UHGV virus genome: UHGV-0037346
DNA from: a virus
Length of the DNA: 30,178 bases
Reading direction: 5' to 3' (one strand)
How positions within the stretch are numbered: position 1 is the first letter of the stretch; each line of letters starts with the position of its first letter. The notes under the pieces were generated by a model, which did no database searches, was not told where the DNA came from, and worked only from the letters and a program-made list of their open reading frames with translations. Positions 1,707 to 27,596 of the stretch are shown here, one piece after another. The position numbers and the translations under genes are program-made.

Positions 1707-4154
1707 TTAACCGTCATGCATCATGCTGGCACGGGCGCGCGCACGTTTATCCCGCTCGTATTTTTCGAGCGCATCCTGTAACTGGCGGTCAAGCTGTGTC
1801 CCCGGTGCAGTACCACCCGTCAGGCTGATGTGATATTCGTTTTTACTCTGGTCCACATAAGAGCGGCCAGCCGGTGCCGTGACCGGCTGATAAGCCTGAT
1901 AACCTGCATAAGAGCTGGTCGCCGGAATATAACCACCGCTGCCATACGTGGCGGCTTGAGTTCTGGCGGCGGTCTGGTCAAGTGTGTCTGACTCTTTGTT
2001 GATAACACCGAGTTTTTCCAGTACCCAGTCAATACCACTGCGCAGTTTGTTGAACGCATTAAGCGGCAGCATCAGCGCGTCAGCCAGTGCCTGCCCGAAC
2101 ATGACGCCCGTGTCACGGCAACGGTTCAGGGTGTCCTGGGTAGCTTTGACCGGGGCAATCAGGTTTTTAAACCACTGCCACGCGGCCTGTAACTTTTCAC
2201 CCAGCCAGTCAAACACCGGCTTAAGTGGCGTGAACAGTTCCCCCACAGGCGCAAATGCTGCTTTCAGCCCTTCAACCACACCGCCAAAGAATGCGCTGAC
2301 AGGCTCCCAGTATTTACGGATAAGCAACGCCCCGGCGACAATGGTGGCCACCACGGCCACAACCGGCCAGCTAATCGCCCCGATGGCGGTCATAACAGCA
2401 CTGCCAACCGTCGTGAAGACTGCCCCCATTGCGCCTGCTGCCGCGATGATGGCATTAATGCCGGTGATAACCGGCCAGGCTACAAGACCAATTGCACCGA
2501 TGATGCCAGTAAGCGCCAGTGCACCACCGACAATAAGGCCGATGGTTGACGCCAGTGATTTGTTTTTCTGGATCCAGCCGTCGAGTTTTAACACATACTT
2601 TGTGGCCGTCTGCGTGAGCTTACGCAGTGCGCCTTCCTGCTGGTCAAACAGGTCAGTCCCCACCGCCTCATAAGCGGACTGAAACTCCTTAAAGTCACCG
2701 CCGAGGTTGTCCTGCATGATATTTACCAGCTCTGCGGTCTTTCCGTCTGAGGCTTTAAACGCAGCGGTCAGTTTGTCCAGCTTTCCGGTTGAGGCGGCAG
2801 TCATCAGCACGGCGGCGGCTGAACTGGCCTCCTCCCCGAAAATGGTTTTCATGTATTCAGCCTGCTGGGCAGTACCGAGCCGGTTTTTCTCAAAGCTGGC
2901 CTGCATTTCTTTCAGAATGGTAAATACTGGTCGGGTGTTTCCCTTACTGTCTGAGGTTTTCACGCCAAGCTCTTTCAGTGCATCCCATGCTTTTCCCGTC
3001 GGTGCCTGCAGGCGGCTTAACACGGCACGGCTTCCCGTCCCCGCCATTGAACCGGTAATTTTTGCATCATGCAGCGCCCCGACCATTGCGGCGGTTTCTT
3101 CAATGCTGACACCGGCATTTTTTGCCACAGGTGCGGCATAGGTCAGCGCATCGCTCATGCCGTCAAAATCGGCGGCGGTTTTGTTCATCGTCATGGAGAG
3201 AACATCCCCGATATGAGCGACCTTATCGTTTGAAAGCTGAAAGGCGGATTTCATCCCCATCAGCAGGGCGGCATTTTCTTCCATCGTGCGACGGTTCGCC
3301 AGCGCCATATTCAGCGTGACCGGCGTTGCCGCCTGAATGGCATCAACATCCCCACCGGCTTTCGCAATAATAATCTGCGCACCGGCCGCATCATCCGCCG
3401 AGGCGGCGGTATTGTCGCCGAGCTGGCGCGCCTGTTTGCGTAATGCGGCCATTTCGGCGGAGTCTTTTGCCACACCGAGCACAGCCTGCAATTCTGAGTT
3501 TTTCTGCGCAAACTCATAACCGGGCATCAGCAGCTTAACTCCGGCCATCGTTCCCGCCGCCGCAATCCCCACACCGGCAGCGCCCACTGAGGCCATATTT
3601 CCGGCCAGTTCCTTTCCGGCCTGATAACGCTGTTTGACTGCGTTAAGTTTTGCCTGTTGCGCACTGACACGCGCCAGCGCGTCGCGCTGACGGTTAAGCT
3701 GTGCGGTGGTTTCACTGATACGGTTTTTCAGTCCCTGCTCATCATGTGCAAGATTGCGGGTATTAATTCCCACAGCGGCCAGTTCCCGCTGCTGGCGTTT
3801 AACGGAATCCGTCAGGCGGTTATATTTCGCCTGTAAGTCCTCCGCCGCTCGCTTTGCGGATTCCAGCACTTTCGCCTGAGCACGGGTCGGACGTTCGGTG
3901 TTTTTAAACTGTGTGGCAAGGGCTTCGGCTTCCTGCCGTGCCTTTTCAAGTGCATGACCAGTCACGGCGAGTTGCGCACTGGTCTTGCGAAATCCCTCAA
4001 TACGGGATGCGTGACCGTTCAGCTCGCGCAGTGATTTTTGTGTTTCCCGGATATCCCCCGACAGCGACTTGCTCGCTGTGCGGATGGATTTAAACGGGCG
4101 GGATGCCTGGTCAACAGCCCTGAGCAATACCTGTAATTTTACATTGTTACTCAT
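1707..4154 (-). CDS. T: Tail tape measure protein (P2 gpT family)
   Basis: 815-aa ORF; coiled-coil N-terminal region, Ala/Gly-rich transmembrane-like middle segments typical of tape measure proteins; ATG at 4154 overlaps E' stop. Confidence 0.9.
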   Translation of the reverse strand: MSNNVKLQVLLRAVDQASRPFKSIRTASKSLSGDIRETQKSLRELNGHASRIEGFRKTSAQLAVTGHALEKARQEAEALATQFKNTERPTRAQAKVLESAKRAAEDLQAKYNRLTDSVKRQQRELAAVGINTRNLAHDEQGLKNRISETTAQLNRQRDALARVSAQQAKLNAVKQRYQAGKELAGNMASVGAAGVGIAAAGTMAGVKLLMPGYEFAQKNSELQAVLGVAKDSAEMAALRKQARQLGDNTAASADDAAGAQIIIAKAGGDVDAIQAATPVTLNMALANRRTMEENAALLMGMKSAFQLSNDKVAHIGDVLSMTMNKTAADFDGMSDALTYAAPVAKNAGVSIEETAAMVGALHDAKITGSMAGTGSRAVLSRLQAPTGKAWDALKELGVKTSDSKGNTRPVFTILKEMQASFEKNRLGTAQQAEYMKTIFGEEASSAAAVLMTAASTGKLDKLTAAFKASDGKTAELVNIMQDNLGGDFKEFQSAYEAVGTDLFDQQEGALRKLTQTATKYVLKLDGWIQKNKSLASTIGLIVGGALALTGIIGAIGLVAWPVITGINAIIAAAGAMGAVFTTVGSAVMTAIGAISWPVVAVVATIVAGALLIRKYWEPVSAFFGGVVEGLKAAFAPVGELFTPLKPVFDWLGEKLQAAWQWFKNLIAPVKATQDTLNRCRDTGVMFGQALADALMLPLNAFNKLRSGIDWVLEKLGVINKESDTLDQTAARTQAATYGSGGYIPATSSYAGYQAYQPVTAPAGRSYVDQSKNEYHISLTGGTAPGTQLDRQLQDALEKYERDKRARARASMMHDG

Positions 4155-4574
4155 TCGTGTTTCCGCTTCGCCGGAGCGCCTTTTCGCGCCATGTGATGAG
4201 TTCGGTCAGGCTCATGGGATACAGTTCTGATGGCGGCCAGTGAAATATCACTGCCACATCCGCCATCAGGTCATCGACCGAGAGATTTTTCGGAAACGTC
4301 ACTGCACCGAGTTCGGCGACAAAAAACCGACCACCTTACCGGCCAGCGCCACAAGGTCAGGCAGTTCCAGCGCGGCGACTTCCTGCTCGGTCAGCATCGG
4401 TGCCGTCATGCGCGGCAGCACTTTAATCAGTGCATCGACTTCGGAGTTCGCGACTGCAGCCAGACTGACACCGCGCAGCGTCCCGGCACTGGGTTTCATC
4501 AGCGTGACCTGTTCGATAACCTGCTCACCACGTTTGACCGGATTGTCCAGGGTAATGACGTTTTCTTTGTTCAT
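4147..4574 (-). CDS. Tail assembly chaperone E+E' (programmed -1 frameshift product)
   Basis: Manual translation: E frame reads GTC GGT TTT TTG TCG ... TGA (stop 4301-4299); -1 frame from the T TTT TTG heptamer stays open for ~58 codons (…FFVAELGAVTFPKNL…LITWREKALRRSGNTNE) and stops at TAA 4149-4147, overlapping the T start ATG (4154-4152). Confidence 0.75.
4299..4574 (-). CDS. E: Tail assembly chaperone E (P2 gpE family)
   Basis: 91-aa ORF immediately upstream of T; ends ...GFLSPNSVQ; contains slippery site near 3' end. Confidence 0.85.
   Translation of the reverse strand: MNKENVITLDNPVKRGEQVIEQVTLMKPSAGTLRGVSLAAVANSEVDALIKVLPRMTAPMLTEQEVAALELPDLVALAGKVVGFLSPNSVQ
4320..4326 (-). other. Slippery heptamer T TTT TTG for E/E+E' -1 translational frameshift
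   Basis: Minus-strand sequence GGT TTT TTG in the E frame; X XXY YYZ-type motif in the same position as the P2 E/E' frameshift. Confidence 0.7.
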
Positions 4575-4630
4575 GGTTTTCTCACTTCTGAATCGGGGTT
4601 AACCGGTCAGCCAGGCTGACCGGATGAAAA

Positions 4631-5149
4631 TCACAGGCCGATATTGCGGCGGTGTTGCTCCAGCCGGTCGACGCCGTTCACCTTCTCAATCATGTTGATG
4701 GTGTCGATTTCGACCAGCTCCTTACCGTCCATCGTCAGCCGGAAATAGGTGCAGACCACGGAGATTCTCGACTCGGTGTCTTCTCCCTGTTTGCCCTCGC
4801 CGGTGTCGATTTCTTTCTGACGTCCACGCATGACCACTTCGACGGCCACCGTTTCGCCGGTATCGTCGCGCTGGTAAGAGCCTGCAAAACGAATCGGCAC
4901 GGCATCCACACCGGTTGCGGCGTAAAGCTCCCAGATAACCGAATCCGGGAAGCCACCGAGCGACCACTCCATTGACAGCGCATCGTCATCAAGGCCGAGG
5001 TCTACCGGTGCGCTGCCGTTCATCCCCGCACCGCGATAGTTTTCGAGCTTACGGGTCAGTTTTGGCAGCGTGACGGACTTTGCAACGCCCTGATAGCTGT
5101 AGCCGTTCAGAAAGACGTTCATTAACTTGAGTTTGCGCGGCATTGCCAT
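4631..5149 (-). CDS. FII: Tail tube protein FII
   Basis: 172-aa ORF, ATG at 5149, directly downstream of sheath gene; size matches P2 gpFII. Confidence 0.88.
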   Translation of the reverse strand: MAMPRKLKLMNVFLNGYSYQGVAKSVTLPKLTRKLENYRGAGMNGSAPVDLGLDDDALSMEWSLGGFPDSVIWELYAATGVDAVPIRFAGSYQRDDTGETVAVEVVMRGRQKEIDTGEGKQGEDTESRISVVCTYFRLTMDGKELVEIDTINMIEKVNGVDRLEQHRRNIGL

Positions 5150-5161
5150 CGGTCAGGCTCC

Positions 5162-6352
5162 TTAATTGCTGTTAACCGAGGTGACCAGATTTGCCAGGTA
5201 TTTATCGGTAATACGCTGGCGCAGGGTCAGGTTTTCAAGAGGAGGCACCGGGGTATAGTCGTAGTCGATATACAGTTTTCCGGCCTTGAGGGTTTCCGCA
5301 TCGTTGGATTCTTCGCTGAACCAGCAGGTCGCATCCACGATATAGCCGTTTGTTTTCAGCTCACGGAATTTGGCATTGATGCCGTCAACGATGTCGCGAA
5401 TCAGCGTGGCGGTGATGGGCTTGTCCACCGCCCACATGTGCGCCTCAGCCATCGTGTCGGCCAGCACCTGCGCGGTGCGGGTGTAGTTTTCAAAGAGGAA
5501 CAGCGGGTCATCAGAGCAGGTACGGTTACCCCAGAAGCGGAAACCGTCACGGCGAATCAGCGTAGTGACGCCTGACTCGTTAAGCAGGTCAGCATCGGTG
5601 CCGGACTCCTGCAAATCCCAGAATACAGAGGCGCTGATGCCGGTAACACCGTTTACCCCGACGTTGGACAGCGTTTTATGCCAGCCCTGCTCCTGGTCGA
5701 TTTTAGCGCGCAGACCCAGCGCACGGGCGGTGGCATACGCGGTGGCGGTGGTACTGGTGACCGTATCCCATGCGAGGAAATCCGGCCAGATGACCATCAG
5801 CTCACGCTGGCTGAAATTCTGGCGGTAGGCTTTCACCTCGGAAATGGTTTTACAGCCCCATGCGCTGATATACCCGAAAGCGCGCAGCTTCTGACAGACG
5901 GATGCCAGTGCAACAGCCACCTCTTTGGTATCCAGTCCCGGCACACCGAGAATACGCGGTTTAACACCGGTTACCGACTCCGCCGCCAGCAGGGCTTTCA
6001 GTCCGGTGTACTGACCGTTTTCGTCAGTGGTGCCGATGATATTGGAAACGGTCTGCGCGAGTTTCGTTTCTTCGTCGTCGCCGGTTCCGTCTTCCACGCG
6101 CACGACAACGGTGACCGGTTTTGACTGGTCAGCGATGGCCTGCAACGATGCCGCCAGCGTGCCTTTTTTACCGGCCTTTGCAATCGCGCTCTGCACATTG
6201 GTGATCAGCACCGGTTTATTGACGGGGAAGGTTTCCGCATCCGCATCGCTGGCCGTGCAGACCATGCCAACAATGGCGGTGGATACGGTGGAAATGACGC
6301 GGGTGCCGTCGTTAATCTCCAGCACCTGCACGCCGTGATGATAGTCACTCAT
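5162..6352 (-). CDS. FI: Contractile tail sheath protein FI
   Basis: 396-aa ORF, ATG at 6352 preceded by GGAG; size and position match P2 gpFI. Confidence 0.9.
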   Translation of the reverse strand: MSDYHHGVQVLEINDGTRVISTVSTAIVGMVCTASDADAETFPVNKPVLITNVQSAIAKAGKKGTLAASLQAIADQSKPVTVVVRVEDGTGDDEETKLAQTVSNIIGTTDENGQYTGLKALLAAESVTGVKPRILGVPGLDTKEVAVALASVCQKLRAFGYISAWGCKTISEVKAYRQNFSQRELMVIWPDFLAWDTVTSTTATAYATARALGLRAKIDQEQGWHKTLSNVGVNGVTGISASVFWDLQESGTDADLLNESGVTTLIRRDGFRFWGNRTCSDDPLFLFENYTRTAQVLADTMAEAHMWAVDKPITATLIRDIVDGINAKFRELKTNGYIVDATCWFSEESNDAETLKAGKLYIDYDYTPVPPLENLTLRQRITDKYLANLVTSVNSN

Positions 6353-6411
6353 CCGTTTAACTCCGTGGTTAATGGGTGAGTGTTATTTTCAGTTGTGCCG
6401 GAGATGTCAGG

Positions 6412-7005
6412 CTATTTGTCCCGGTTGGTTAAGGGATGACACAATTTATTCTTTGTCGCTGATGAGGGGAATTTTTTATAGAGCGTGGACAGGCCAATAT
6501 CAAAAATCAGCGCCACACGTTGACGAGATTCCCCCGCAGCCAGCAACCGTCCGACCTGCTCCCACTCACTCGCGGTGAGTTTCGGACGTCTGCCACCAAT
6601 ACGACCTTTGGCTCTGGCCGCTTCCAGTCCGGCGCGTGTCCGCTCGACAATGAGTTCTCGTTCCATTTCAGCCAGGGCACCCATCACATGGAAGAAAAAA
6701 CGCCCCATCGGCGTGCTGGTATCAATAGCATCCGTCAGGCTGCGAAAATTAATGCCGCGTTCGCGCAGTTCCTCAACCAGAATGACCAGATGCCGCATAC
6801 TACGCCCCAGCCTGTCCAGCTTCCAGACAACCAGAGTGTCACCTTCCGATAATGTTCTGAGCAGTTTTTTCAGTCCCGGTCGGTCGGACTTAGTGCCGCT
6901 GATTTTATCCTCAAAAATCAGCTCACATCCTGCGCACTCCAGCGCGTTACGCTGCAATTCCGTGTTCTGGTCATTTGTTGACACGCGTACATAGCCAATA
7001 AGCAT
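6412..7005 (-). CDS. Serine recombinase, DNA invertase (Gin/Pin/Cin/Hin family)
   Basis: N-terminus MLIGYVRVSTNDQNTELQRNAL with catalytic Ser motif, resolvase core ...VVWKLDRLGRSM..., C-terminal HTH ...ALIFDIGLSTLYKK; second in-frame ATG (7005) gives the canonical invertase N-terminus; ORF track start is 7011. Confidence 0.9.
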   Translation of the reverse strand: MLIGYVRVSTNDQNTELQRNALECAGCELIFEDKISGTKSDRPGLKKLLRTLSEGDTLVVWKLDRLGRSMRHLVILVEELRERGINFRSLTDAIDTSTPMGRFFFHVMGALAEMERELIVERTRAGLEAARAKGRIGGRRPKLTASEWEQVGRLLAAGESRQRVALIFDIGLSTLYKKFPSSATKNKLCHPLTNRDK

Positions 7006-7224
7006 GAGCATCCCCCTGAATAAAAACCGGAGATGATGCCAGTTGCCCGTTATCTCTGCATTTTCTTAAACGTTGCTTTAAGATGGGCGTGGTCACCACC
7101 ACATCATCAAAGTGGAACGCGCTGGGAGCGTACCGCTGCAGAATGGGGCATCTCATTAAGCAGTTGATTACTTCCATTGCGAGTGATTCAATAGATATTG
7201 AAAATTCACCCGAAGAGAAAGAAA

Positions 7225-8370
7225 ATGCAAGGAAATAGAATTGACTTTGTCAATACTTTGAGAGGATTTGCAGCATTAGCCGTTGTTATTGCTCACTATA
7301 CTGGTAATTTTTGGTCAATGCGAACAGCAGTAGCAAGTCTTACAAATGCTCCTGAATTACCATCTGAAACATATGCTTGGCCTAGTTATCTTGTATGGCT
7401 CCATGCCTTCCCTTTGTTTAACTGGGGGGCTTTCGGCGTTGCTATATTTTTCATCATTAGCGGGTTTGTCATTCCACTCTCGCTACAAAAAATAACATTT
7501 CACGGTTTTTTATTAAGCAGAATCATTAGAATAATACCAACATATATTATTGGTTTTACTATAACGCTTACAGCCATATTGATAAGCAGTAAATATTTTT
7601 CAGTGGAATGGCCATTTAATAACAAAGAAATATTGATTCACTACATCCCTGGAATCAGAGACTTGTTGTACTCCAGGAGCATTGATGGAATCATTTGGAC
7701 ACTGGAGATAGAAATGAAGTTTTATCTCATTTGCGCTATATTAATAGCAGTATTTCGCAAGCACTCCATAAAAGTTTTCATTACCCCGCTTATTCTTTTT
7801 TTGTTTGCTCTCTATATTAACAAGGTTGCTCCTGAATGGATTAACTCCAATATATCAGCATTCCATCTTGCCATGGCATACATGTTTTTTTCTCAGTATA
7901 TTATTTATATGTTTATCGGAACCATGTTTTATTATATGTATTGTGGTTATATAAATGCCAACAAGGCTTATCTTGGAATCGGCATATTATTTACTTTATT
8001 CTGCATTCTTTGGTGGGCTGGTCCATATTCAGCCAGTATAAATGTCGCCTGGAGCTATGCATTTGCGCTTTTGGTCTTTGCTTTTGCTTATGCTCACCCA
8101 AAATTATTTAAATCCAATAGGTTTTTTGATTTTTTTGCCAACATAAGCTATCCGCTATATATTATCCACGGGGTAGCTGGGTATGTCGCCCTTCGAATTT
8201 TACTTGAAATGGGGTTTAAAGCATGGGTATCTCTCTTAATTGTGACTTTTTCCATTATATTTTCGTCATGGTTAATACACATCTTGATTGAATCCCCTTC
8301 TCAGAGAGCAGGCAAGCGCCTCGTAGCTAAACGAGGTAGGCCATTAAAAAAAACAGCGCAACCAACCTAA
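7225..8370 (+). CDS. Acyltransferase family 3 integral membrane protein (Oac/OafA-like; putative O-antigen acetyltransferase)
   Basis: N-terminal motif NRIDFVNTLRGFAALAVVIAHY typical of acyltransferase_3; ~10 hydrophobic segments; strongly AT-rich and rare-codon-biased compared with flanking phage genes; ATG at 7225 (ORF track start 7198 is TTG). Confidence 0.8.
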   Translation: MQGNRIDFVNTLRGFAALAVVIAHYTGNFWSMRTAVASLTNAPELPSETYAWPSYLVWLHAFPLFNWGAFGVAIFFIISGFVIPLSLQKITFHGFLLSRIIRIIPTYIIGFTITLTAILISSKYFSVEWPFNNKEILIHYIPGIRDLLYSRSIDGIIWTLEIEMKFYLICAILIAVFRKHSIKVFITPLILFLFALYINKVAPEWINSNISAFHLAMAYMFFSQYIIYMFIGTMFYYMYCGYINANKAYLGIGILFTLFCILWWAGPYSASINVAWSYAFALLVFAFAYAHPKLFKSNRFFDFFANISYPLYIIHGVAGYVALRILLEMGFKAWVSLLIVTFSIIFSSWLIHILIESPSQRAGKRLVAKRGRPLKKTAQPT

Positions 8371-8410
8371 TAGATCTTATCAAGTAAAGGCAGCTGCTCT
8401 TATTATACAA

Positions 8411-8437
8411 GAGGTGCACTTTCTTCGAGTGCACCTC
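8411..8437. terminator. Candidate bidirectional hairpin between convergent acyltransferase and tfa genes
   Basis: Perfect 9-bp inverted repeat GAGGTGCAC-(9 nt)-GTGCACCTC in the 127-bp convergent intergenic region; flanking U-tracts are weak. Confidence 0.4.
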
Positions 8438-8497
8438 CTCTGAAAAACAACTTTATAAAATTATTTTCATCGCCATATTATTCATTAATCACCCATC

Positions 8498-8890
8498 TTA
8501 CGGAATAATAGGCCAGCTAATCTCTGCATCAGTGTTAGCGTCAATCCTGCTCAGCAGCACACGGTATTGTTTCCACAGAGGCAACGTGGCGGATTCTGCA
8601 TCTGTAGCCATACCCAGATCGACGGCATCCTGTAGCACACCAATTTGCTGCGTTGCTTCATTCATCAGCGAATTTTTCATAGCGAAGTTATTGGTAATTC
8701 GCAGTTGTTTTGCTGCTGCTAATTCTTCATCGGTCGGAGTTGGCGCACTAAAAACGCCATTGACGTAATGCCAACCGATACCCATACCTTCAGTAGAGAG
8801 AATGGCGCTGGCTGATTCAGGCCATTCTGACTTGCCATCCCAGATAACAATATTTTCTACGATGCCATTTTTGATAATTGCATAGTTCAT
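8498..8890 (-). CDS. Tail fibre assembly protein (P2 gpG-like Tfa)
   Basis: 130-aa ORF directly downstream of tail fibre; C-terminal ...LPLWKQYRVLLSRIDANTDAEISWPIIP resembles the conserved Tfa C-terminus. Confidence 0.8.
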   Translation of the reverse strand: MNYAIIKNGIVENIVIWDGKSEWPESASAILSTEGMGIGWHYVNGVFSAPTPTDEELAAAKQLRITNNFAMKNSLMNEATQQIGVLQDAVDLGMATDAESATLPLWKQYRVLLSRIDANTDAEISWPIIP

Positions 8891-10404
8891 TTACGCATAC
8901 TCCATAACAATAACCACACCCGCAGAGCCATTACCGCCATTAACGTTTTGATTTCCACTGATTGTTGCCGCGCCATTACCACCCGCACCATACCCACCAG
9001 GGCCAGAAATAAAGCTGCCGCCGCCAAGACCGGAACCTACAGTCCCTCCGACTGCTGTTGGGGTTGCCATCACACCGGGTAGCCCGGCGTACCCGTTGCA
9101 CAAAATGGCACCCACGGTCGAAGTGCCACCCTGACCGCCCATGCCACATGACGCAGAGGAGCCTGACGCAGTGCAGCCGTTGCCTGGCTGGCCTCCACTT
9201 GCTGAGAGATAAGAGCCAAAAGTCGTCGTACCACCCTGCGTGCCATTGGTCATCGTCGAGGCAATACCGCCATTACCACCCGCACCAATCGTGACAAGCA
9301 CGGTTGATATTGCAGACAGGTTAAAGAGACCACGTGCCATTCCGCCGCCACCGCCACCACCACCCGCGGCGTTATAGTTTCCTGTGGAAGTTGCCCATCC
9401 GCCGCCCNNNNNNNNNNGTTATAGTTTACTGTGGAAGTTGCCCATCCGCCGCCCCCACCGCCCCCAATAGCGATGACATCCGCGAACATTGCTCCGGGAG
9501 TTTTGGTGTAAGTGCCAGACGTCTTGATTATCTGCATGCCAATCAGACGACCGACTGCGCCGTTATTTACTAAACCAAGGTATGCGAGAAGACCGGCAAC
9601 ATCCTTTCCACTCAAATGAGTCAGCGTATTGTCCAGCGGTTGTTTACCTGCCAGCGCATTGTTAATGGTGGTGCTGAATTTCGGGTCATTGTTAATGGCT
9701 GCGGCAATTTCTTTCAGTGTGTCCAGCGTGGCAGGCGCACCATTAATCAGAGCGGTAATAGCAGCCTGTACAAACGCAGTGGTCGCAATCCGCGTGGTGT
9801 TATTTCCTGCATCAGGAGTCGGCGCTTTTGGTTCTCCGGTAAATGTCGGATTATGTTTCTGTGCATACTGGGTATGAGGATCCTGTGCGGCAATGTGGTT
9901 TCTCATCTGGTCATCCACATACAGCCTTAATTCCAGGACTTCATCATCCACGTATTTACGGGTCGCCAGTACCACCGACGGGTCGATTTTCAGCGTGATG
10001 GCTTCGGTATTCGTGACAACCAGAATCATGCGGATAGTCTGGGTACGACCACTGCCTTCCTGCAACTGCGGTTTGTACGTTTCCGGGCAGTTCGCCACCG
10101 CAATGAGTACGCCTTCATCATCATAAAGCCCAATCTCACGGATCCAGAATCCGCCCTCGTTCTCAGGGATGATTTGCTCCGCAATAATCTGGCTCTGGTT
10201 GTTCGGGTCAACACTCAGAAGATTCAGCGGCGCGATGCGTTTCTGGTTAATCAGTTTTGTCTGTGCCGGGTCTGGTGTCGGCAAGACACCATTCGCATCA
10301 CCAACGGCCATTTGCGTCAGATTCAGCTTACTGCCGAGCATCGTCGCGTTAGCCAGCCGTGCTGCGCCCTGATTAGTCAGAATGGCGTAGTATTTCACTG
10401 TCAT
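8891..10404 (-). CDS. H: Tail fibre protein (P2 gpH-like), interrupted by assembly gap
   Basis: N-terminal ~150 aa resemble the P2 H N-terminal domain (…MAVGDANG…GGFWIREIGLYDDEGVLIAVAN…YKPQLQEGSGRTQ…); Gly-rich C-terminal part (8891-9340) joins in frame when read through the repeat downstream of the N-run; the reading frame on either side of the 10-N gap differs, so the true length is unknown. Confidence 0.7.
9408..9417. other. Assembly gap (10 N) inside tail fibre gene
   Basis: Run of n characters; flanked by a ~37-bp direct repeat (9371-9407 and 9418-9454, one mismatch). Confidence 0.95.
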
Positions 10405-11012
10405 GCGTTTACTCTCAGGTTATCAATTAAATGAATGGCCGAGGCCGGGAAATAATCCCCTCCGACAATAATGGCCTCCGGGGTGTAGGGATAAACCGTC
10501 AGGGCGTCACCGTGATAGCATCCCGCACCGGCAAAAATGTTGCCGGTTGTACTTAAACTGATAGCCAGTCCCGTCAGATGGCGGCTTGCCGGTTTTGCAT
10601 CAGCAACGAGGCGCTCCAGCTCCTGATACATTTCCTCGGTAATACCCTGCTCAAGCACGCCAACAACGATGCGGAACGTCCCCGGCTCCTCGTTGAGTTG
10701 CCACCACTCCCTCACCTCAATCAGATAGCCGAGCGGCTCCACCACACGCCGGATTGCGCCTATAGTGCCCTTATGGCAGTGAATGAAATACGCATCGCGG
10801 ATAACAGCGCGTTTTGTCGCTTCCGGCCACTTATCATCCCAGCGGTCAACCGAAAATGACCACGCCAGCCACGGCAGCAGATTTGCCGGGCAGGTGTCCG
10901 GGTTCCACAGCTCACGAATACTGACCGGTGTTTTTTCAATTTCCGCACAGGCTTTTGCAGCAGCGACTTCAAGCGGTGATGAGCCGGTCGGCAGCAGTCG
11001 CGAATCACTCAT
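10401..11012 (-). CDS. I: Baseplate/tail protein I (P2 gpI family)
   Basis: 203-aa ORF between J and H; stop overlaps H start. Confidence 0.8.
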   Translation of the reverse strand: MSDSRLLPTGSSPLEVAAAKACAEIEKTPVSIRELWNPDTCPANLLPWLAWSFSVDRWDDKWPEATKRAVIRDAYFIHCHKGTIGAIRRVVEPLGYLIEVREWWQLNEEPGTFRIVVGVLEQGITEEMYQELERLVADAKPASRHLTGLAISLSTTGNIFAGAGCYHGDALTVYPYTPEAIIVGGDYFPASAIHLIDNLRVNA

Positions 11013-12897: not shown

Positions 12898-12974
12898 AAC
12901 GGAAAGGATGCCGCTGGACGATACCAGCAGCAATCATGGAGGGTTCTGTCAGCTGTGACACAACATAACAAATA

Positions 12975-13730
12975 TTAGTTGTAGCACTTCTCTATAATCT
13001 TCATACACTCCTCATGAGCTAAATCATGGCTGTCAAATTCTTTATTAAAAAAGAAGAAAAACGCCTTCTTAACCTGAGGAATTTCAATAAAAATAAATTC
13101 ATCAACCTTATGAAAGAAATGAAAACTCTTGTTTGATGTTTCAAAAACCATCAAAGAATTATGTTTTTTATCCTTCCATTTCGACATCAGATTGCGTCGC
13201 GATTTTCGTATAATCCTGAAGACATCCCCCGGCGTCGTATCGACATTCCCCCAAAACATTGCAACCGGGAAGTTTGCAAGAAACGGGATATAATCACCAC
13301 CTTTATACCTGAGAAAGCGGTTCCGCAAATCCATTAATTGCAACTTAAAACCCATGTATTGCAACCACCATATGATGCAATCATACTCATAATCTGTTAA
13401 CTCCTCCCCTCTCTTTTCCGTAAGAAATTTCTTCAGGTTATACTCAAACACTCCCAGCAAATCAGAATTGCACACTCTGCATGCTGGTACAGTGGCTTTA
13501 ATGTAATGAGTTGACTGATTATTCTTTTTATTAATTAAAGATTTTTCAGCATTTGACTCAAAGGCCCACTGAGGAATAATGTGCTCACGAGTAATATCGT
13601 CAGAACTCCCGCATAACACACATATATCAGCATTATGGTCAGCAATAATACAATCCATAACTTTCTTTTGAGAATGCTTTACTCTTTTTCTCAAAATGGA
13701 AAACTTTTTATCCACAAACACCCGTCTCAT
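12975..13730 (-). CDS. HNH-motif protein, AT-rich cargo at the S-V (P2 orf30) locus
   Basis: 251-aa ORF in clearly AT-rich DNA; motif C-VL-C…REHIIPQW…N…C-RV-CN matches the HNH (beta-beta-alpha-metal) signature; start ATG overlaps S stop (13727-13730). Confidence 0.6.
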   Translation of the reverse strand: MRRVFVDKKFSILRKRVKHSQKKVMDCIIADHNADICVLCGSSDDITREHIIPQWAFESNAEKSLINKKNNQSTHYIKATVPACRVCNSDLLGVFEYNLKKFLTEKRGEELTDYEYDCIIWWLQYMGFKLQLMDLRNRFLRYKGGDYIPFLANFPVAMFWGNVDTTPGDVFRIIRKSRRNLMSKWKDKKHNSLMVFETSNKSFHFFHKVDEFIFIEIPQVKKAFFFFFNKEFDSHDLAHEECMKIIEKCYN

Positions 13731-14185
13731 ATAACATCTTTCGATAGAATCACTAATAACTCCCTTTCTATCAATTGTATAGATTCCTTGTCAAAACCAA
13801 ATAACTCACGAACAGGATATTCCACCACAGCACTATTACGCCCCGGCTTATCCCTAAGCCCTAATTGATGTACTCGCGCAATTCGTTGTACTCCGCTGGC
13901 AAACGCCACCACCGCCGCACTCTCGCTACCTGTTGCTTTCATAAACCGGTTAGTGCGTAATTTCACAAACATTTCCCGCTTTATCCGGCCTTTCTTATTT
14001 CGTACTGGTTGGTTTTTTCTCGGTACATACGGCGTACCATCCGGGGCTTTTTGTAATTTAATTCGCTGCTGCTGGCGCTGGCGCAGCTTCTTCGCAATAT
14101 CTACCGCCAGTCGCCGACGCCCTGACGTTGACAGCGATTCAATCAGTCCGGTCAGACGGTCTTCAAAACACTTAAACTCATTCAT
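13727..14185 (-). CDS. S: Tail completion / virion morphogenesis protein S
   Basis: 152-aa ORF directly after R; size and position match P2 gpS. Confidence 0.78.
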   Translation of the reverse strand: MNEFKCFEDRLTGLIESLSTSGRRRLAVDIAKKLRQRQQQRIKLQKAPDGTPYVPRKNQPVRNKKGRIKREMFVKLRTNRFMKATGSESAAVVAFASGVQRIARVHQLGLRDKPGRNSAVVEYPVRELFGFDKESIQLIERELLVILSKDVI

Positions 14186-14645
14186 CCCACTTACTCACCA
14201 GTTCACCATTGATATAAAGCTCCATCGGGCGGGTGACCGGCTCCGGCGGCGGGGGTTCCGGGATATTCTTCACATGCAGTGCGCCGTCCACCTCACTGAC
14301 CAGCGTGCGCTCGGTCAGCATCAGGCTGATGCTGATATCAAAGCTGCTGTCATTGTTGATGTCTGCATAAAACGTGAAGCCCTTTTTCTGGCCTGCGTCG
14401 GTGGTCATGATGTCGGGCTGATTTTCCCGCAGCCACGCCAGCACCGGCACGATGAGCAGGTCAAAATCACCGGTAAAGTCGGTCACAATGACATTGAGCG
14501 TGTAACGCTTTTCGAATGACAACGACGCCGCCAGTGTGGAGGCAATACTCCCGTTATCCACGAATATCCGCAGCATATCGGGGTTAGTTTTCAGCACCGT
14601 GACGGCATCAGTCAGCGCCCTGCGCAGGCTGTCGGGTTTGAGCAT
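14178..14645 (-). CDS. R: Tail completion protein R
   Basis: 155-aa ORF, same size as P2 gpR, downstream of lysis genes. Confidence 0.8.
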   Translation of the reverse strand: MLKPDSLRRALTDAVTVLKTNPDMLRIFVDNGSIASTLAASLSFEKRYTLNVIVTDFTGDFDLLIVPVLAWLRENQPDIMTTDAGQKKGFTFYADINNDSSFDISISLMLTERTLVSEVDGALHVKNIPEPPPPEPVTRPMELYINGELVSKWDE

Positions 14646-14898
14646 CGTTTTCGTCCTGACAGTGTTTAATCATTTTTACCTGGCTGGCACAGCGTGCCAG
14701 CGCGTTCTCAAGCTGCCGGATATCGGCACTTAAATCGCCGTTCGTCTGCGGGTCACTGCCCGGCATCGGGCAAAGGCTCACTTTCGGGCAGGCGTTGTGG
14801 ACAATCACTGGCGTCGGTGCAGGCCGGGCGCTGGTGCAACCGGCGCACAGCATCAGGCAGGCCAGCGCCGTACCAGCGGCGAAAATCTTCGTTTTCAT
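14608..14898 (-). CDS. lysC: o-spanin lipoprotein LysC (Rz1-like), nested
   Basis: Internal ATG at 14898 preceded by GAGG; MKTKIFAAGTALACLMLCAGC lipoprotein signal with lipobox; 96 aa; lies out of frame within 3' part of lysB and overlaps R start. Confidence 0.65.
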   Translation of the reverse strand: MKTKIFAAGTALACLMLCAGCTSARPAPTPVIVHNACPKVSLCPMPGSDPQTNGDLSADIRQLENALARCASQVKMIKHCQDENDAQTRQPAQGAD

Positions 14899-15178
14899 TG
14901 AGTAACCTCGTGATGGTTTTCTCGCGCTGTGCTTCACGCTTCGCGGCGTTTTCCAGTTCCTGACGCAGTGCCACCTGCGCCAGCTCGTTTTTGTCTGCCC
15001 TGGTGAGTGCAACATGAAGCTGGTTTTTCAGCATGGTGATGGTCGTCTGCTGTTCACTGGCGACGTTGTTCGCCCTGTCCAGCGATGCGCGCAGGCTGGC
15101 GTTTTCATGCTTCGCCAGAAACAGCCCCGCCACCGCCAGCGATAACAACACAACCAGCACAATCATCAGCTTTGACAT
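14753..15178 (-). CDS. lysB: i-spanin LysB (Rz-like)
   Basis: 141 aa; N-terminal TM helix (IVLVVLLSLAVAGLFLA) followed by coiled-coil, Pro-rich C-terminus; position after lysA. Confidence 0.75.
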   Translation of the reverse strand: MSKLMIVLVVLLSLAVAGLFLAKHENASLRASLDRANNVASEQQTTITMLKNQLHVALTRADKNELAQVALRQELENAAKREAQREKTITRLLNENEDFRRWYGAGLPDAVRRLHQRPACTDASDCPQRLPESEPLPDAGQ

Positions 15179-15591
15179 GGTTCCCGCCCCTCAAGACGTT
15201 GACGGCAGGCCGTACGTATCAGCCGGAAGAACACCGACGCCACGAGATAAATCAGCGCGGTAAAAATCCACCCGGCGGCGACCAGCGAGATAAATGTCGC
15301 CACCATCACCACCAGAGCCGCCGCCCGTCTGCACCACGGCACCGGCTGCAAAAACAGCGACATGACAATCTTCACGGCCAGCGACTCCGGTGGCAGCTCC
15401 CGCCCGTAGCGTTCCAGCACATACTCAGTGGCATACACCCCGACACCACCGGCAACCACACAGATAACCGTCGCCAGAATCGCCCAGGCGGCGACAAAAT
15501 TGACGGCCACGCTCTTCGGGTAAATCAGGGACAGTGCCAGCATCAGCGCCAGCGACACGTTCAGCATCAGTGAAAGGGATAATTTCTTCAT
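15166..15591 (-). CDS. lysA: Lysis timing membrane protein LysA
   Basis: 141-aa multi-TM ORF between endolysin and lysB; same size as P2 LysA. Confidence 0.72.
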   Translation of the reverse strand: MKKLSLSLMLNVSLALMLALSLIYPKSVAVNFVAAWAILATVICVVAGGVGVYATEYVLERYGRELPPESLAVKIVMSLFLQPVPWCRRAAALVVMVATFISLVAAGWIFTALIYLVASVFFRLIRTACRQRLEGREPCQS

Positions 15592-15605
15592 GGTGTTTAC
15601 TCCGT

Positions 15606-16103
15606 TTAAGCCGGTACGCCGCCAGCGGTACGCCAGACGGTGACCAGTTTTTCCAGTGAATGCTCACGCTGACCGTAACCGGCACCCGGCAGGGACGCCC
15701 AGATATTGCGACAGCGTGAAATGGCGCGCTCAATGCGTCCCGCCCGGATGTCATCCAGTGCACCGCGTTCGCGGATCAACTGAATGGCGAGCCTGTCCTG
15801 TGACAACGGACTGAAATCCGGCAGGGCAAGCTGTTTGCGGTAATGCGGCCAGAACAGGTAAAGCTGCTGATAGCGACCGGAGGCCGTGGATTTTTCACCG
15901 CGACGGTTAAACACCTTCGCCGGTCGGCCATGCGCGAACGGGTGGTCACTGTAGTCGGTGAAAATTTCCGGCTTTCCGTCCAGTCCGGTGACTATCACGT
16001 CATAGCCCCGGTTTTTCGTCAGCGGATGATTCGCCGTCCCTTCGGACACGGCCAGCATGTCGAGAAAGGCGGCGATATTCTGATGCGTGTTAATTACCGG
16101 CAT
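15606..16103 (-). CDS. K: Endolysin (P2 gpK family)
   Basis: 165-aa ORF following holin; …DMLAVSEGT… catalytic-region-like motif; size matches P2 K. Confidence 0.82.
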   Translation of the reverse strand: MPVINTHQNIAAFLDMLAVSEGTANHPLTKNRGYDVIVTGLDGKPEIFTDYSDHPFAHGRPAKVFNRRGEKSTASGRYQQLYLFWPHYRKQLALPDFSPLSQDRLAIQLIRERGALDDIRAGRIERAISRCRNIWASLPGAGYGQREHSLEKLVTVWRTAGGVPA

Positions 16104-16384
16104 TACGGTTTCCCCCTGCCCTTAAAGCGGCGCTGAATGGCAATCTCAATCACCTGATAACCGGCGATACCCAGCATGGAGCCGATGCCGCACACCGCAG
16201 GCAGTGACAGGTCAGGAAACTGCACCAGAACAACACCGGCAACCATCGAGACAAAACCACCGAGTAACATGCGCCCGATAAACAGACGCGGGGTGATGGG
16301 TTCACCACCGGCAAGCACCTTGCCGACAACAATCAGCACCCCAATCATGAAAAGCGACAGGACGCTTTTTTCTTCTGCTGTCAT
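16103..16384 (-). CDS. Y: Holin (P2 gpY family)
   Basis: 93-aa ORF with several hydrophobic helices and charged C-terminus, immediately upstream of endolysin. Confidence 0.8.
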   Translation of the reverse strand: MTAEEKSVLSLFMIGVLIVVGKVLAGGEPITPRLFIGRMLLGGFVSMVAGVVLVQFPDLSLPAVCGIGSMLGIAGYQVIEIAIQRRFKGRGKP

Positions 16385-16387
16385 GCG

Positions 16388-16591
16388 TTACTCCCACAGA
16401 TTGACAGTTTCAGCCACGGGCGCGGTCTGAACGTCGGGCAGTTCGACGGCGGTGCCGTGCGGCAGCACCGCACCCAGTTCAGCCAGTCCCGGATTTGCGG
16501 CGAGCACGGCCTCGACCACGCCCTCAGTGCGCCCGTAATACCGGACACAGATGGCGTCGAGCGTGTCGCCCTGTAGCGCAAAGGTCTTCAT
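16388..16591 (-). CDS. X: Tail protein X (LysM-domain)
   Basis: 67-aa product from ATG at 16591 (MKTFALQGDTLDAICVRYYG… LysM-like); start overlaps L stop (TGATG). Confidence 0.75.
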   Translation of the reverse strand: MKTFALQGDTLDAICVRYYGRTEGVVEAVLAANPGLAELGAVLPHGTAVELPDVQTAPVAETVNLWE

Positions 16592-17100
16592 CAGATTTGA
16601 CTCACAATGCAGCGCGGCTTGTCCTGGATTCGCGCCACTGCCCAGCGCATATCCCGCCACAGCTCATCAATGGTGCTGTCAATGCTGTCGGCCTTCTTGT
16701 CGCCTTTGGCACTGGCATCCACGCCGCGATAACGCTCATAAAGCGACGCGGTCGCCATCGCACACACGGCGCGCTCGTAGTAAAAAACTTTGATGCTTTC
16801 ACCGTCGATGTCGTCCGCCGGGACTTCCGCCAGACGCGTAAAACCGGCGGCAATTTTCTGTTCGCGGTACTCGTACAGCTCCGCATTCGTCTCCGCCATG
16901 CCTGACTTGATGGCCTCACGTAGACGGGCGGGGGCGACGGTCTGCTCAAGGCGCATACGTTCCCGGACGCGCTTCGGGTCGATATCGGGAAAAAAGAACG
17001 TGTTTTTAATCACCGGCTCGTCGCCTGCCGGTTGCGGGATGACCACCGTACCCTCACCGGACACGGGAGCCTCCTTTCGCGGAATAATCAGCGTCATCAT
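16591..17100 (-). CDS. L: Head completion/stabilization protein L
   Basis: Start at internal MMTLIIPRKEAP gives 169 aa, matching P2 gpL; ORF track start is 17160. Confidence 0.85.
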   Translation of the reverse strand: MMTLIIPRKEAPVSGEGTVVIPQPAGDEPVIKNTFFFPDIDPKRVRERMRLEQTVAPARLREAIKSGMAETNAELYEYREQKIAAGFTRLAEVPADDIDGESIKVFYYERAVCAMATASLYERYRGVDASAKGDKKADSIDSTIDELWRDMRWAVARIQDKPRCIVSQI

Positions 17101-17199
17101 GACTACCTCTGAAAAGTCGGGCGGTGGACGCCGGTGCAGTGTCAGGTGATTCACCCTCACTGACCGGCGTGCCGCCCTGGCGCGGGGCGCATTCGGTTG

Positions 17200-17943
17200 T
17201 TAACTGGCTTTCTTTTTCGGGCGTCCACGTTTTGCCGGTGTCACGCTCCGGGTCTTACGCGGGGCGCGGGTGGCCGCTTTGGGCTGCGGCTCCGGCTTCG
17301 GTTTCAGCTCCCGCTCCAGTCGTTCAATCTCTTTTTTGACGCCTGCCTGACAGTCGAGCTGTGTCGCACGTTGCAGGTGCGCCAGCGCACCTGCGGCATC
17401 ACCACCGTCACGCAGAAACAGACCGGTGATTTTGTGCAGCTTTGCGCGCACTTCATCAGGCATGTCAGCCGTGGCGGTCAGTTCAAGGGTGTCCGTCAGC
17501 AGGCGGGGATCCACAGACTCACCGGCAGCGTGAGCGCGCATGGCCGCAAGCGCCACCTCCTCGGTGAACATGTACGGCGGGGTGCGGCGGTGTTTCCCCG
17601 GCATGGTCAGACCATACTTCAGGGCATAACGGGCAATCTCCAGCGCACCGGCAATATCGCCGGTATCCAGACGCCACAGCATGACCGTCATCAGAATGTC
17701 ATCCTGTGCACCTTTGCCCTGCTCCAGCACGCCGTTCACCCACGGCAACCAGAACGGCAGCAGTTCGCGTTTTTTCGCGGCCTTCAGCTCTTTTGAATAA
17801 ATCGCTTTCAGTGTGCGCTGGTCTGCGGCGAGCTTAACCAGCATCTGCTCATAGACAGTTGCATGTCGCAGCGGGGCGGCTTCCCGCTGCGCGGTCATCG
17901 CTGCCGAGACCCGCATCATGTGGCGCTGTGCGGGACTCGTCAT
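17200..17943 (-). CDS. M: Terminase endonuclease (small) subunit M
   Basis: 247-aa ORF, same size as P2 gpM; basic Lys/Arg-rich C-terminal tail. Confidence 0.85.
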   Translation of the reverse strand: MTSPAQRHMMRVSAAMTAQREAAPLRHATVYEQMLVKLAADQRTLKAIYSKELKAAKKRELLPFWLPWVNGVLEQGKGAQDDILMTVMLWRLDTGDIAGALEIARYALKYGLTMPGKHRRTPPYMFTEEVALAAMRAHAAGESVDPRLLTDTLELTATADMPDEVRAKLHKITGLFLRDGGDAAGALAHLQRATQLDCQAGVKKEIERLERELKPKPEPQPKAATRAPRKTRSVTPAKRGRPKKKAS

Positions 17944-17946
17944 CGG

Positions 17947-19020
17947 TTACGCTCCCGGCTCTGCGGTCGCTTTAGCCGGTGTGGAGAAATCACCGACCTT
18001 AATTTTTTCCACCAGACAACCGGCGGCGTAGTCCTCCACCACGTAATCAATGTTCATTGACTCGTAGTTCTCCACGCGGTCGAGTTTCGGGTTTTCCTCA
18101 ATCACGCGGCGATGGCTGTCATCCATGTAGTAGATGGACAGGTTTTCCAGCTTCGTGATGAGCATCGCATCCGCCGGGAAGTACGGGACGCGTACCGCTG
18201 GCAGGTTGCCGATGCGTTTCTGGCTGATGATGACGTCAGCGGCCAGCATTTCGCTGTTGTCCTGCTCCTTGTTGACGATGGGAAAATACTTGTCCGCCAG
18301 TAGCTGACGTCCCACAATCACCACAAGGTCAGGGTCTTCCTGATACCACGGCTCAATCAGGTTGTTGGTCGCATCCATCACCAGTGCATCAAGGCTGGCA
18401 TAATCACCGCCCTTACCCACGCGGATGACCTCAGAGGTGGTGTGGCCTTCCTCGTCAGTGACCTTGCTCATCACGCGCGCCGGGGCTTCATTGCGGTATT
18501 TCTGCAGCCAGCCGACCGCCACATCCTGCAGCATCGGATTGCTGCTGCGGTCAGAGGTTTCGGCACGCTTCACGCCGTTAAAACCGGCCATGATAAAATC
18601 AAGGGACTGGCGTTTAATAATGGCGTTACGGATACGGAGCTGGAAATCCTGATAACGCGCCCACAGGTCCAGCGTTTTGTAGCGGATATAAAAATCGAAG
18701 TTAATCTGGTCGCATTCGTACTTGTTTGACGCCAGCTTCGAGAAGTCCTTCGGCTGACGCTCGGTGCCACCGGCGGTGTCGGTGGTGCTGGCGATGGAGC
18801 CGGTGACACCAATACCAATTTTTTCCCCTTTCATTTCGCTGACCGGCACAATGTTGATGCGGGTCAGAAAGTCAGAGGACTCCTGCATGGTGTTCATCAG
18901 GGTCTGGGTGACCGACGGTTCAACGGTGAATTTTTTCGACACATCACCGGCGTCGATGCCGTTCAGTTCGGCAACACGGGACAGGTAGGCATTAAATTTA
19001 AAGCGGGTTTCCTGGCGCAT
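17947..19020 (-). CDS. N: Major capsid protein N
   Basis: 357-aa ORF, same size as P2 gpN, between O and M. Confidence 0.9.
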   Translation of the reverse strand: MRQETRFKFNAYLSRVAELNGIDAGDVSKKFTVEPSVTQTLMNTMQESSDFLTRINIVPVSEMKGEKIGIGVTGSIASTTDTAGGTERQPKDFSKLASNKYECDQINFDFYIRYKTLDLWARYQDFQLRIRNAIIKRQSLDFIMAGFNGVKRAETSDRSSNPMLQDVAVGWLQKYRNEAPARVMSKVTDEEGHTTSEVIRVGKGGDYASLDALVMDATNNLIEPWYQEDPDLVVIVGRQLLADKYFPIVNKEQDNSEMLAADVIISQKRIGNLPAVRVPYFPADAMLITKLENLSIYYMDDSHRRVIEENPKLDRVENYESMNIDYVVEDYAAGCLVEKIKVGDFSTPAKATAEPGA

Positions 19021-19078
19021 AGTTTTTCCTGAAATTAAGGGTTAATCGTGAAGGTTTTCCCGGACTGACTGACGCCGG

Positions 19079-19933: not shown

Positions 19934-20106
19934 TGTCAGGAGTCCTGAATAGTGATTAGAGGAGTCACATGTCGGCATCAGTTTCCCGACGATGCGCATC
20001 CTCCGCCATCAGTCCCGGATGGCTTATCACTGACACAACAGCACCTTAGCGAATCGCGGGGCGCGACTCAGTAGCCTTGCCGTGTATTCATCACGGCGAG
20101 GTATTC

Positions 20107-22913: not shown

Positions 22914-22918
22914 ACATC

Positions 22919-22940
22919 GCCGCCTGCGGGCGGCTTTTTT
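22919..22940 (+). terminator. Rho-independent terminator downstream of Q
   Basis: GCCGCC-TGCG-GGCGGC hairpin followed by TTTTTT. Confidence 0.65.
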
Positions 22941-23082
22941 ACACCCCGTCATCACGCCCTCACACGCTCACCACCGCACAAAACACCCCGCAGACACACC
23001 AACGCCTCAACGGGCAGACTAAGCGCCTTCACGACGCGCTCAGACGCTGAAAAAATAAAATCAGCACCACCGCCAGCGCGCA

Positions 23083-23101
23083 GTGCTTTCCCCGCCTCGC
23101 C
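23083..23101 (-). other. cos: cos cohesive-end site (P2 type)
   Basis: Reverse complement of 23083-23101 is GGCGAGGCGGGGAAAGCAC, which I recall as the 19-nt P2 cohesive end; located just beyond Q as in P2. Confidence 0.75.
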
Positions 23102-23316
23102 TGCCCGCTTTATGGGTCGGTTTTAATGCAGGTGCACGAATACACCGGAGGCGCGCCGGCACTGGTGGCGCTCAGACGCAACAGGGGAGGAAAACGCATG
23201 CAATTGAATGCATTTCTAGGCACACCTAAAAATGAAAAAATGTTATGACAATTAATCATTTTAAACACACTGATTAAGGGTAGAATTCTCCTAGTAAAAT
23301 CATAGAAAAACCGCTA

Positions 23317-24246: not shown

Positions 24247-24349
24247 ACTCAGCTCCGTTATGGCTATAATCGCATAAATAATAAGCACTTATATTGCAAT
24301 CATCTAGTTAAATACACAATATTTATGACTCCGAAATTTCATTAAATCA

Positions 24350-27533: not shown

Positions 27534-27596
27534 GACTTTCTCCAGGCAAAAAGAAGCCCCGCACAATTAAGTGCGTTAAAAACTCTGGTTAATTAC

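Follow-up and report, generated by a model that had tools for sequence, protein, structure and literature searches.

A tail-fibre inversion segment of a P2-like prophage in which an acyltransferase gene probably stands in for one fibre arm

UHGV-0037346 is a P2-like prophage sequence of 30,178 nucleotides, referred to below as the window, i.e. the whole stretch of DNA that was analysed; its late genes lie on the minus strand. Between the gene of the tail-fibre assembly protein (Tfa), which is the fibre chaperone, and the sheath gene FI, the window carries two divergent genes, one encoding a serine invertase and the other an acyltransferase of the Acyl_transf_3 family. P2 has fun(Z) at the equivalent position, likewise antisense to the late genes. 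A first-pass annotation, made from the letters alone, had placed a Gin-family invertase and a divergent, AT-rich acyltransferase_3 gene for 381 amino acids (aa) at this P2 Z/fun locus, and had seen no alternative fibre/Tfa pair there. Both genes are borne out by Pfam matches, by the identity of the invertase to Gin, and by the composition of the cassette, which is 36% G+C against ~52-57% in the neighbouring genes. Their position and the lack of a second pair are likewise confirmed.

The invertase matches the Pfam profiles Resolvase (E 3e-52) and HTH_7 (E 5e-13). It is 78.6% identical over 182 aa to Mu Gin (structures 3uj3/4m6f), 79% identical to P1 Cin, and 97.5% identical to the invertase of the P2-like phage pro483. 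The gene is intact and the product retains the catalytic-serine context YVRVS. Translation likely starts at the ATG at position 7005, yielding 197 aa, since this codon is preceded at 5 nt by the ribosome-binding site GGGGGA and since identical genes are annotated in this way by the Prokaryotic Genome Annotation Pipeline (PGAP); the in-frame ATG upstream, at 7011, is probably unused. The 5' end of the gene contains a candidate recombinational enhancer, which occupies the same position as the annotated cin enhancer of P1 (NC_005856) and shares 56 of 72 bases with it, the ends being best conserved. We consider an enhancer probable here, although its conservation is suggestive rather than compelling because these bases are also coding sequence.

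Two 26-bp crossover sites, identified solely by comparison with a flipped genome, lie in front of the invertase gene and within the tail-fibre gene H (Table 1). They are inverted relative to each other and share the central dinucleotide. Their half-sites resemble those of P1 cixL (CAATCCTAAACC TT GGTTTAAGAGAA in the annotated P1 record) and the sites of conventional relatives. In a similarity scan of the whole window these two sites form the single pair, and the same scan recovers core-matched pairs in conventional loci of other species. A general inverted-repeat search of the window did not report the pair, as its exact complementarity is too short. The sites bound a segment that contains the acyltransferase gene, the Tfa gene and the variable C-terminal part of H, with the invertase gene just outside. 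The first-pass annotation, which had seen no obvious invertible tail-fibre segment at the locus, was therefore wrong on this point; the search for gix/hix-like repeats that it proposed for the window leads to this one 26-bp inverted pair, and the segment between them is seen in both orientations.

The second orientation came from a megablast search of positions 6300-10500 against 5,426 complete Escherichia coli genomes. Many E. coli prophages match the flanks at ~98% yet hold a conventional fibre set between them. In two strains, 102651 and TUM14664, there is a 99.8% match to positions 7073-9581 that is inverted relative to the flanks. The gene order in these strains is I, truncated H, acyltransferase (on the H strand), Tfa and fibre tip (on the opposite strand), invertase, and sheath, and the outer half-sites are swapped exactly at the TT/AA core dinucleotide. 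An exact look-up of the acyltransferase protein yielded further contigs from NCBI, ENA and Logan assemblies, to all of which we applied junction probes. Seven of these (L005-L007, L010, L011, L013 and L014) have the orientation of the window and five (L001, L003, L008, L009 and L012) are flipped; exact junction exchange was scored across 13 sequences, the window included. When similar places that were not displayed are included, the look-up comprises ~13 window-oriented and 6 flipped loci, and the two flipped RefSeq complete genomes may already be among the undisplayed places. The recombinase, the sites with their matching cores, and the inversion itself place the locus among the Gin/Cin/Pin/Hin inversion systems.

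Table 1. Features of the inversion locus in the window, and copies of related segments elsewhere
Feature	Position	Strand	Remarks
Sheath gene FI	5162-6352	-	flanks the invertase side of the locus
Serine invertase gene	6412-7005 (ORF, open reading frame, to 7011)	-	Pfam Resolvase and HTH_7
Candidate recombinational enhancer	6916-6987	.	within the invertase gene, at its 5' end
Left crossover site	7061-7086	.	TTTTCTTAAACG TT GCTTTAAGATGG, core TT at 7073-7074
Invertible segment	7075-9576	.	2,455 bp after removal of a 47-base scaffold artefact
Short coding remnant	7075-7167	+	window orientation: tail of a 45-codon ORF from 7033; flipped: extension of H
Promoter-like sequence	7164-7192	+	TTGATT, 17 nt, TTCAAT, preceded by TG; inside the segment
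AT3-only acyltransferase gene, 381 aa	7225-8370 (ORF opens at 7198)	+	Pfam Acyl_transf_3; ATG at 7225
G+C-rich hairpin, 11 bp	8411-8437	.	between the convergent acyltransferase and Tfa genes
Tail-fibre assembly protein (Tfa) gene, 130 aa	8498-8890	-	Pfam Caudo_TAP, E 1e-21
H, variable glycine-rich C-terminal part	8891-9576	-	weak Gly_rich_2 matches
Right crossover site, in gene H	9565-9590	.	ATTTACTAAACC AA GGTATGCGAGAA, core AA at 9577-9578
H, constant N-terminal part, ~273 aa	9579-10404	-	Pfam Phage_tail_fib, E 2e-62
Sister segment copies	L004 3409-5665; L015 3486-5742; L016; L017		family-9 glycosyltransferase instead of acyltransferase
Copies in Mu-like prophages	L104 = UViG_2924896205_000002; L105 = UViG_2703718835_000006		acyltransferase of L104 interrupted by IS1

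Copies of opposite orientation show 0 differences in the 2,455-bp segment, and when the window is compared with the flipped contig L001, one 1.5-kb flank is identical and the other has 1 difference. Either orientation can be found with one and the same flank haplotype, and the two are also spread over several distinct haplotypes. Given the identical segments, the near-identical flanks and the mixture of haplotypes, the segment has switched repeatedly and recently, and we infer that it also flips inside one culture. A scan of JGI metagenomes for the inner-left sequence and a scan of IMG/VR for the window-type left junction each gave 0 matches. Assembly breaks were considered as a sign of mixed orientation and dropped, since the contigs break in the glycine-rich fibre region and not at the sites, and since contigs in that collection are generally short.

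In the window, gene H appears as two ORFs (8891-9340 and 9250-10404, minus strand). A scaffold gap of 10 Ns at 9409-9418 lies within H, with a duplicated 37-mer on either side (9371-9454; one mismatch), and deletion of 47 bases, i.e. of the gap and the duplicate, restores a 1,467-nt gene for a 488-aa H, as in L006 and other assemblies. The split of H is an assembly artefact. Contigs L012-L014 stop at the same glycine-rich spot of H as the window gap. Short-read assemblies probably break in H because related strains have, in a second prophage, a fibre arm that is 88.8% identical.

One may ask whether the two orientations are themselves artefacts of assembly, or arose when inverted repeats underwent homologous recombination. 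The window is indeed scaffolded, the gap falling inside the segment, several contigs stop at one glycine-rich spot, and the second, similar fibre arm is present in the same strains. However, flipped copies occur in two RefSeq 'complete genome' entries as well as in independent NCBI, ENA and Logan assemblies, each of the window contigs runs across one site, and the two junctions are in agreement. Moreover, the exchange took place at the 2-bp core of imperfect 26-bp sites, whose exact inverted homology is too short for RecA-dependent recombination or for assembly breakage. We find this explanation extremely improbable.

The two orientations encode different fibres. In the orientation of the window, H is complete (488 aa) and followed by the chaperone gene, while the acyltransferase gene converges on Tfa across the hairpin, antisense to the late genes. 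The hairpin folds at -18.6 kcal/mol on the plus strand and at -21.4 kcal/mol on the minus strand, with no clean T-run after either, and may serve as a terminator. In the flipped orientation, residue 273 of H is followed by 33 further codons (ALRWAWSPPHHQSGTRWERTAAEWGISLSS) up to a stop codon at 7165-7167, giving a 306-aa product; 57 nt separate the end of this truncated H from the start of the acyltransferase gene downstream, which is now on the strand of the late operon, and the fibre tip with its chaperone is separated from the constant part of H. The 306-aa gene has been called in the flipped loci L009 and L012, and its predicted product is a truncated H without the receptor-binding part. 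In PGAP annotations of the flipped genomes, H is a pseudogene 'missing C-terminus' and the detached tip is a 'hypothetical' or 'glycine-rich' protein. As to the origin of the ~150-nt stretch from the left site to the acyltransferase start, a blastn search against E. coli genomes found just the two genomes with the same segment. Inversion would no longer pick between two host ranges here, but would toggle the fibre between complete and truncated states; if so, lysogens in the flipped state should release particles without the receptor-binding tip.

The constant part of H is also present in conventional relatives. Those with 98% identical flanks keep H-Tfa-Tfa'-H' and the invertase at this very spot, which supports the view that the acyltransferase displaced the second fibre arm of an ancestral host-range switch, a possibility already raised in the first-pass annotation.

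A sister segment shares the inner half-sites, encodes a fibre tip and chaperone that are 88.8% identical, and carries, in the cargo arm, a gene for a family-9 glycosyltransferase with weak matches to lipopolysaccharide (LPS) heptosyltransferases (Table 1). In P2/186-like prophages it is found in the fibre-complete orientation, and in one of them, L017, the insertion sequence IS3 stands in place of the invertase. It is flipped in e14-like elements beside rclABC, and the strains with these e14-like copies are the same two that carry the flipped acyltransferase segment (the locus was read in 102651; the match in TUM14664 overlaps stfP). The acyltransferase segment, in turn, is also present at 99.5% identity in Mu-like IMG/VR prophages with the Mu Gp44-48 baseplate genes. 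Judging from these sequences, the fibre tip, the chaperone and an envelope enzyme move as a unit between prophage families that share crossover sites. The joint travel of the three suggests that the enzyme may modify or mask the receptor of the adjoining fibre tip; since two envelope enzymes are found paired with one fibre tip, such masking becomes a testable hypothesis.

Other loci retain only parts of this layout. SopEPhi (AY319521; locus L018) has a degenerate, partnerless site with the core TC at 24749-24774 in H and an invertase fragment at 27819-28022, and these remains mark it as a locked fossil of the same arrangement. At the ipaH loci L030 and L031 (3674-5500, minus strand), a 608-aa IpaH-type effector with LRR_TTSS and NEL E3 ligase domains is encoded ~500 nt upstream of, and divergently from, a same-family invertase in E. 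coli and Shigella flexneri; the site scan detected no crossover site pair at these two loci. In the Salmonella prophage L040, two small genes at 5158-5930, one of them with DUF1493, lie between the invertase-side site and the invertase, so that the cargo is outside the segment. Eleven draft contigs (L028, L029, L032, L035, L037, L038, L041-L044 and L053) end 70-200 nt upstream of an invertase gene of this family; these ends fall at the expected crossover position, as they would if assemblies tend to break at conventional invertible segments.

The existence of fossil layouts such as SopEPhi, or ipaH beside an invertase without a site pair, together with the lack of a second fibre/chaperone pair in the window, could be taken to mean that the invertase is a functionless relic or acts elsewhere in the genome, the local region being fixed. 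The first-pass annotation had likewise proposed a relic or another target. However, the invertase is intact, a core-matched site pair brackets the segment, the window has no other site, and near-identical prophages of both orientations show exact exchange at the junctions. Given that the segment, acyltransferase included, has been flipped recently, a relic or a remote target seems very improbable to us.

The acyltransferase matches Acyl_transf_3 with E 7e-23, residues 16-361 being aligned to profile positions 2-325 of 326, and in a crude hydropathy scan several hydrophobic stretches are spread over its length. It carries the acyltransferase-3 (AT3) motifs R13-X10-H24, FFIISG (75-80) and RIIR (99-102); the general forms R/K-X10-H, FFXISG and RXXR come from mutagenesis work on OafA and Oac (PMC7448272). 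The Pfam scan revealed no SGNH domain in the protein, and neither NCBIfam nor PADLOC had a match to it. A tblastn search over 50,697 phage records found no close homologue, with three matches at ~24% identity, none of them from enterobacterial phages. The nearest relatives, from Pseudomonas, Hydrogenophaga and Aeromonas, are 60-69% identical, and those from Legionella 52-57%. The homologue of Aeromonas veronii is the cargo of another P2-like prophage, the closest homologue from an assembly of a public sequencing run (68% identical) adjoins a phage integrase gene, and the homologue of Pseudomonas schmalbachii terminates a polysaccharide cluster with glycosyltransferase and ABC-transporter genes. 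These motifs and contexts make it a well-grounded prediction that the enzyme acylates a surface carbohydrate, probably LPS, as a lysogenic-conversion function. The identification in the first-pass annotation is thus credible as far as a surface-carbohydrate acyltransferase is concerned, while its 'Oac/OafA type' is too specific, considering the missing SGNH domain and a best phage match of 24%. By its foreign composition and its place between G and FI, on the strand opposite to the late genes, the gene fits a moron of the fun(Z) hotspot, though in the window orientation only.

The promoter-like sequence ahead of the acyltransferase gene (Table 1) has a weight-matrix score of 8.4 and is a consensus match only; 39 of the 30,138 window positions score at least 8. 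For both the acyltransferase and the sister glycosyltransferase, the best promoter-like sites are inside the segment, ~30 nt before the start codons. In two window-oriented copies that are locked, the cargo has remained intact: in L005, with a truncated invertase, it is the acyltransferase, and in L017, where IS3 replaces the invertase, it is the glycosyltransferase. L005 (GCA_050893475.1) is a heavily deleted prophage from which window positions 1710-6598 and ~12934-28186 are missing, and in which H, Tfa and the acyltransferase are intact. The fun(Z)-like strand, the internal location of the best sites and the intact cargo of the locked copies favour an internal promoter that is active in both orientations. 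The acyltransferase would then be transcribed in the lysogen from its own promoter irrespective of the orientation, and flipping would add transcription from the late operon. An epigenetic Dam/OxyR switch, as described for gtr and oafB, is unlikely, as no GATC is present in positions 7075-7224 when the sequence is read directly.

We assign a probability of about 0.7 to the reading that the locus is a working Gin/Cin-type switch of a P2-like prophage in which one fibre arm has been replaced by an imported acyltransferase gene. Several points weigh against it. Flipping within a culture is deduced from differences between assemblies and was not observed, and other invertases of the same family in the genome could drive the flip in trans, as PinQ does with the e14 segment (PMC12529663). 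Disabling the fibre in a part of the lysogens has no obvious benefit, and the present state may be a transitional one that precedes locking. The acceptor of the acyl group is unsupported by a family match in NCBIfam or PADLOC or by a close phage homologue. A stricter promoter scan omitted the sequence at 7164-7192 and listed no usable promoter ahead of the acyltransferase start codon, its 10 sites in the region comparing with 6.8 +/- 3.0 in shuffles. Finally, an outward sequence at 6978-7005 on the plus strand, a perfect TTGACA followed after 16 nt by AAGCAT, is directed towards the segment. On the opposite strand the same bases are the conserved invertase codons M-L-I-G-Y-V-R-V-S-T, and the sequence could be an outward promoter or, since it is built from the conserved V-S-T codons, a coding coincidence.

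An alternative is that the inversion is a phase-variation switch of the acyltransferase, with no effective promoter of its own, expression in one orientation, and a mixed population as with Hin/fljBA. Transcription would then come from the fibre (late) operon in the flipped state, or from an invertase-side promoter in the window orientation. The AT-rich import begins just ~35 nt ahead of the start codon, and the outward sequence in the 5' codons of the invertase faces the segment. All three cargoes, i.e. the acyltransferase, the family-9 glycosyltransferase and sopE, are read away from the invertase-side site, as the displaced arm was, and no terminator is predicted in the 57 nt between the truncated H and the flipped gene. 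There is also a precedent, as the orientation of the e14 segment alters a host phenotype without prophage induction, the responsible ORF starting on the invertase side (PMC12529663). In the two complete genomes that have the acyltransferase segment together with the e14-like glycosyltransferase segment, each of these segments is flipped. On the other hand, the late promoters of P2 are silent in lysogens, and for this reason transcription from the late operon would not give lysogenic conversion. The outward sequence may owe its existence to the V-S-T codons, better promoter-like sites are internal to the segment, and the cargo has been kept intact in the locked, window-oriented L005 and L017. 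In addition, the counts of loci per orientation resemble an unselected equilibrium. Phase variation of the acyltransferase is unlikely, though it merits serious consideration.

A broader form of the same idea is a portable cassette in which invertase-driven phase variation of LPS modification, with the enzyme (the acyltransferase here, the family-9 glycosyltransferase in the sister segment) transcribed according to orientation, spreads among P2-, Mu- and e14-like prophages by way of the crossover sites that they share. We regard this as rather improbable. If true, the cassette would be a phage-borne counterpart of Hin/fljBA that acts on LPS, and clones would be mixed for the receptor of the fibre tip itself. 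Control of the enzyme by orientation would, if confirmed, mean inversion-based phase variation of LPS in E. coli, and would bear on serotyping, phage therapy and the choice of vaccine targets.

The preferred reading, a working switch with one arm replaced, has consequences of its own. An invertase beside a non-fibre gene looks orphaned, while here the non-fibre gene sits within the invertible segment. Recurring annotation artefacts are explained, as an intact prophage in the flipped state looks defective under PGAP. The loci described above also trace an evolutionary path by which a host-range switch becomes a cargo site, with the acyltransferase locus and the glycosyltransferase segment as active intermediates, the copies with IS3 replacing the invertase or with a truncated invertase as locked forms, and SopEPhi and the ipaH loci as fossils.

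Two further AT-rich genes on the minus strand of the window resemble cargo. The first, at 23317-24288, encodes 323 aa, adjoins the replication gene A, and matches Pfam DUF4238 (E 5e-39) and the PADLOC profile 'DUF4238-Pers' (E 1.8e-219); its product looks like anti-phage defence cargo at a second P2 hotspot. The second, at 12975-13730 (~38% G+C, 251 aa), lies in the tail/baseplate block, upstream of V in the phage direction, and is without a match in Pfam or PADLOC. L007 has this gene, between S and V, L006 lacks it, and this variation makes the place a third variable cargo site.

Among the known inversion systems, the locus is closest in plan to the G segment of Mu with Gin, the C segment of P1 with Cin, and the P segment of e14 with PinE (the layout in Mu is described in PMC4406740). 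In all of these, as here, the invertase gene is just outside the segment, the 26-bp sites are inverted and share a 2-bp core, one site splits the fibre gene into a constant and a variable part, and the segment includes the chaperone gene; for an enhancer, the window has a probable candidate in the first part of its invertase gene. Unlike these systems, the window has a single arm with fibre tip and chaperone, the other arm consisting of a 33-codon stub and the acyltransferase gene, and a flip leads to a truncated fibre and not to a second host range. The prophages nearest in backbone, pro483 and the prophage of E. coli 19-5 (L002), have the same outer half-sites, the same position between G and FI, and an invertase 97.5% identical to that of the window. 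Their 1.84-kb segment holds H-Tfa-Tfa'-H', whereas here AT-rich cargo replaces Tfa'-H'.

SopEPhi shares with the window the order H, G, opposite-strand cargo, invertase, FI. Unlike the window it is locked, and its cargo, sopE, encodes a type III effector and not an envelope enzyme. In the P2 fun(Z) hotspot, cargo is likewise located between G and FI and antisense, while in the window it is part of the invertible segment and is turned round together with it. For this hotspot, the exchange of fibres, cargo of mixed kinds, and invertases accompanied by inversions have been reported (iLund4u preprint 10.1101/2024.10.15.618418). In a full-text literature search we met no account of a Gin-type segment that contains an acyltransferase or glycosyltransferase; the closest statement is the general remark on the fun(Z) hotspot in that preprint.

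With respect to the cargo, the closest parallels are Oac of Sf6 and OafA and OafB of Salmonella, which are of the AT3 family, have its motifs and are prophage-borne. The acyltransferase of the window has the AT3-only architecture of Oac, whereas OafA and OafB carry the SGNH domain that it lacks. The known phase variation of AT3 genes proceeds via Dam/OxyR or repeat tracts, inversion not being among the mechanisms listed (PMC9558356). The Hin/fljBA system of Salmonella employs an invertase of the same family, and its segment governs a surface antigen and not the host range of a phage. There, the promoter and hin are within the segment and expression depends on orientation; here, the invertase is outside, and expression of the acyltransferase according to orientation is a possibility that we consider unlikely.

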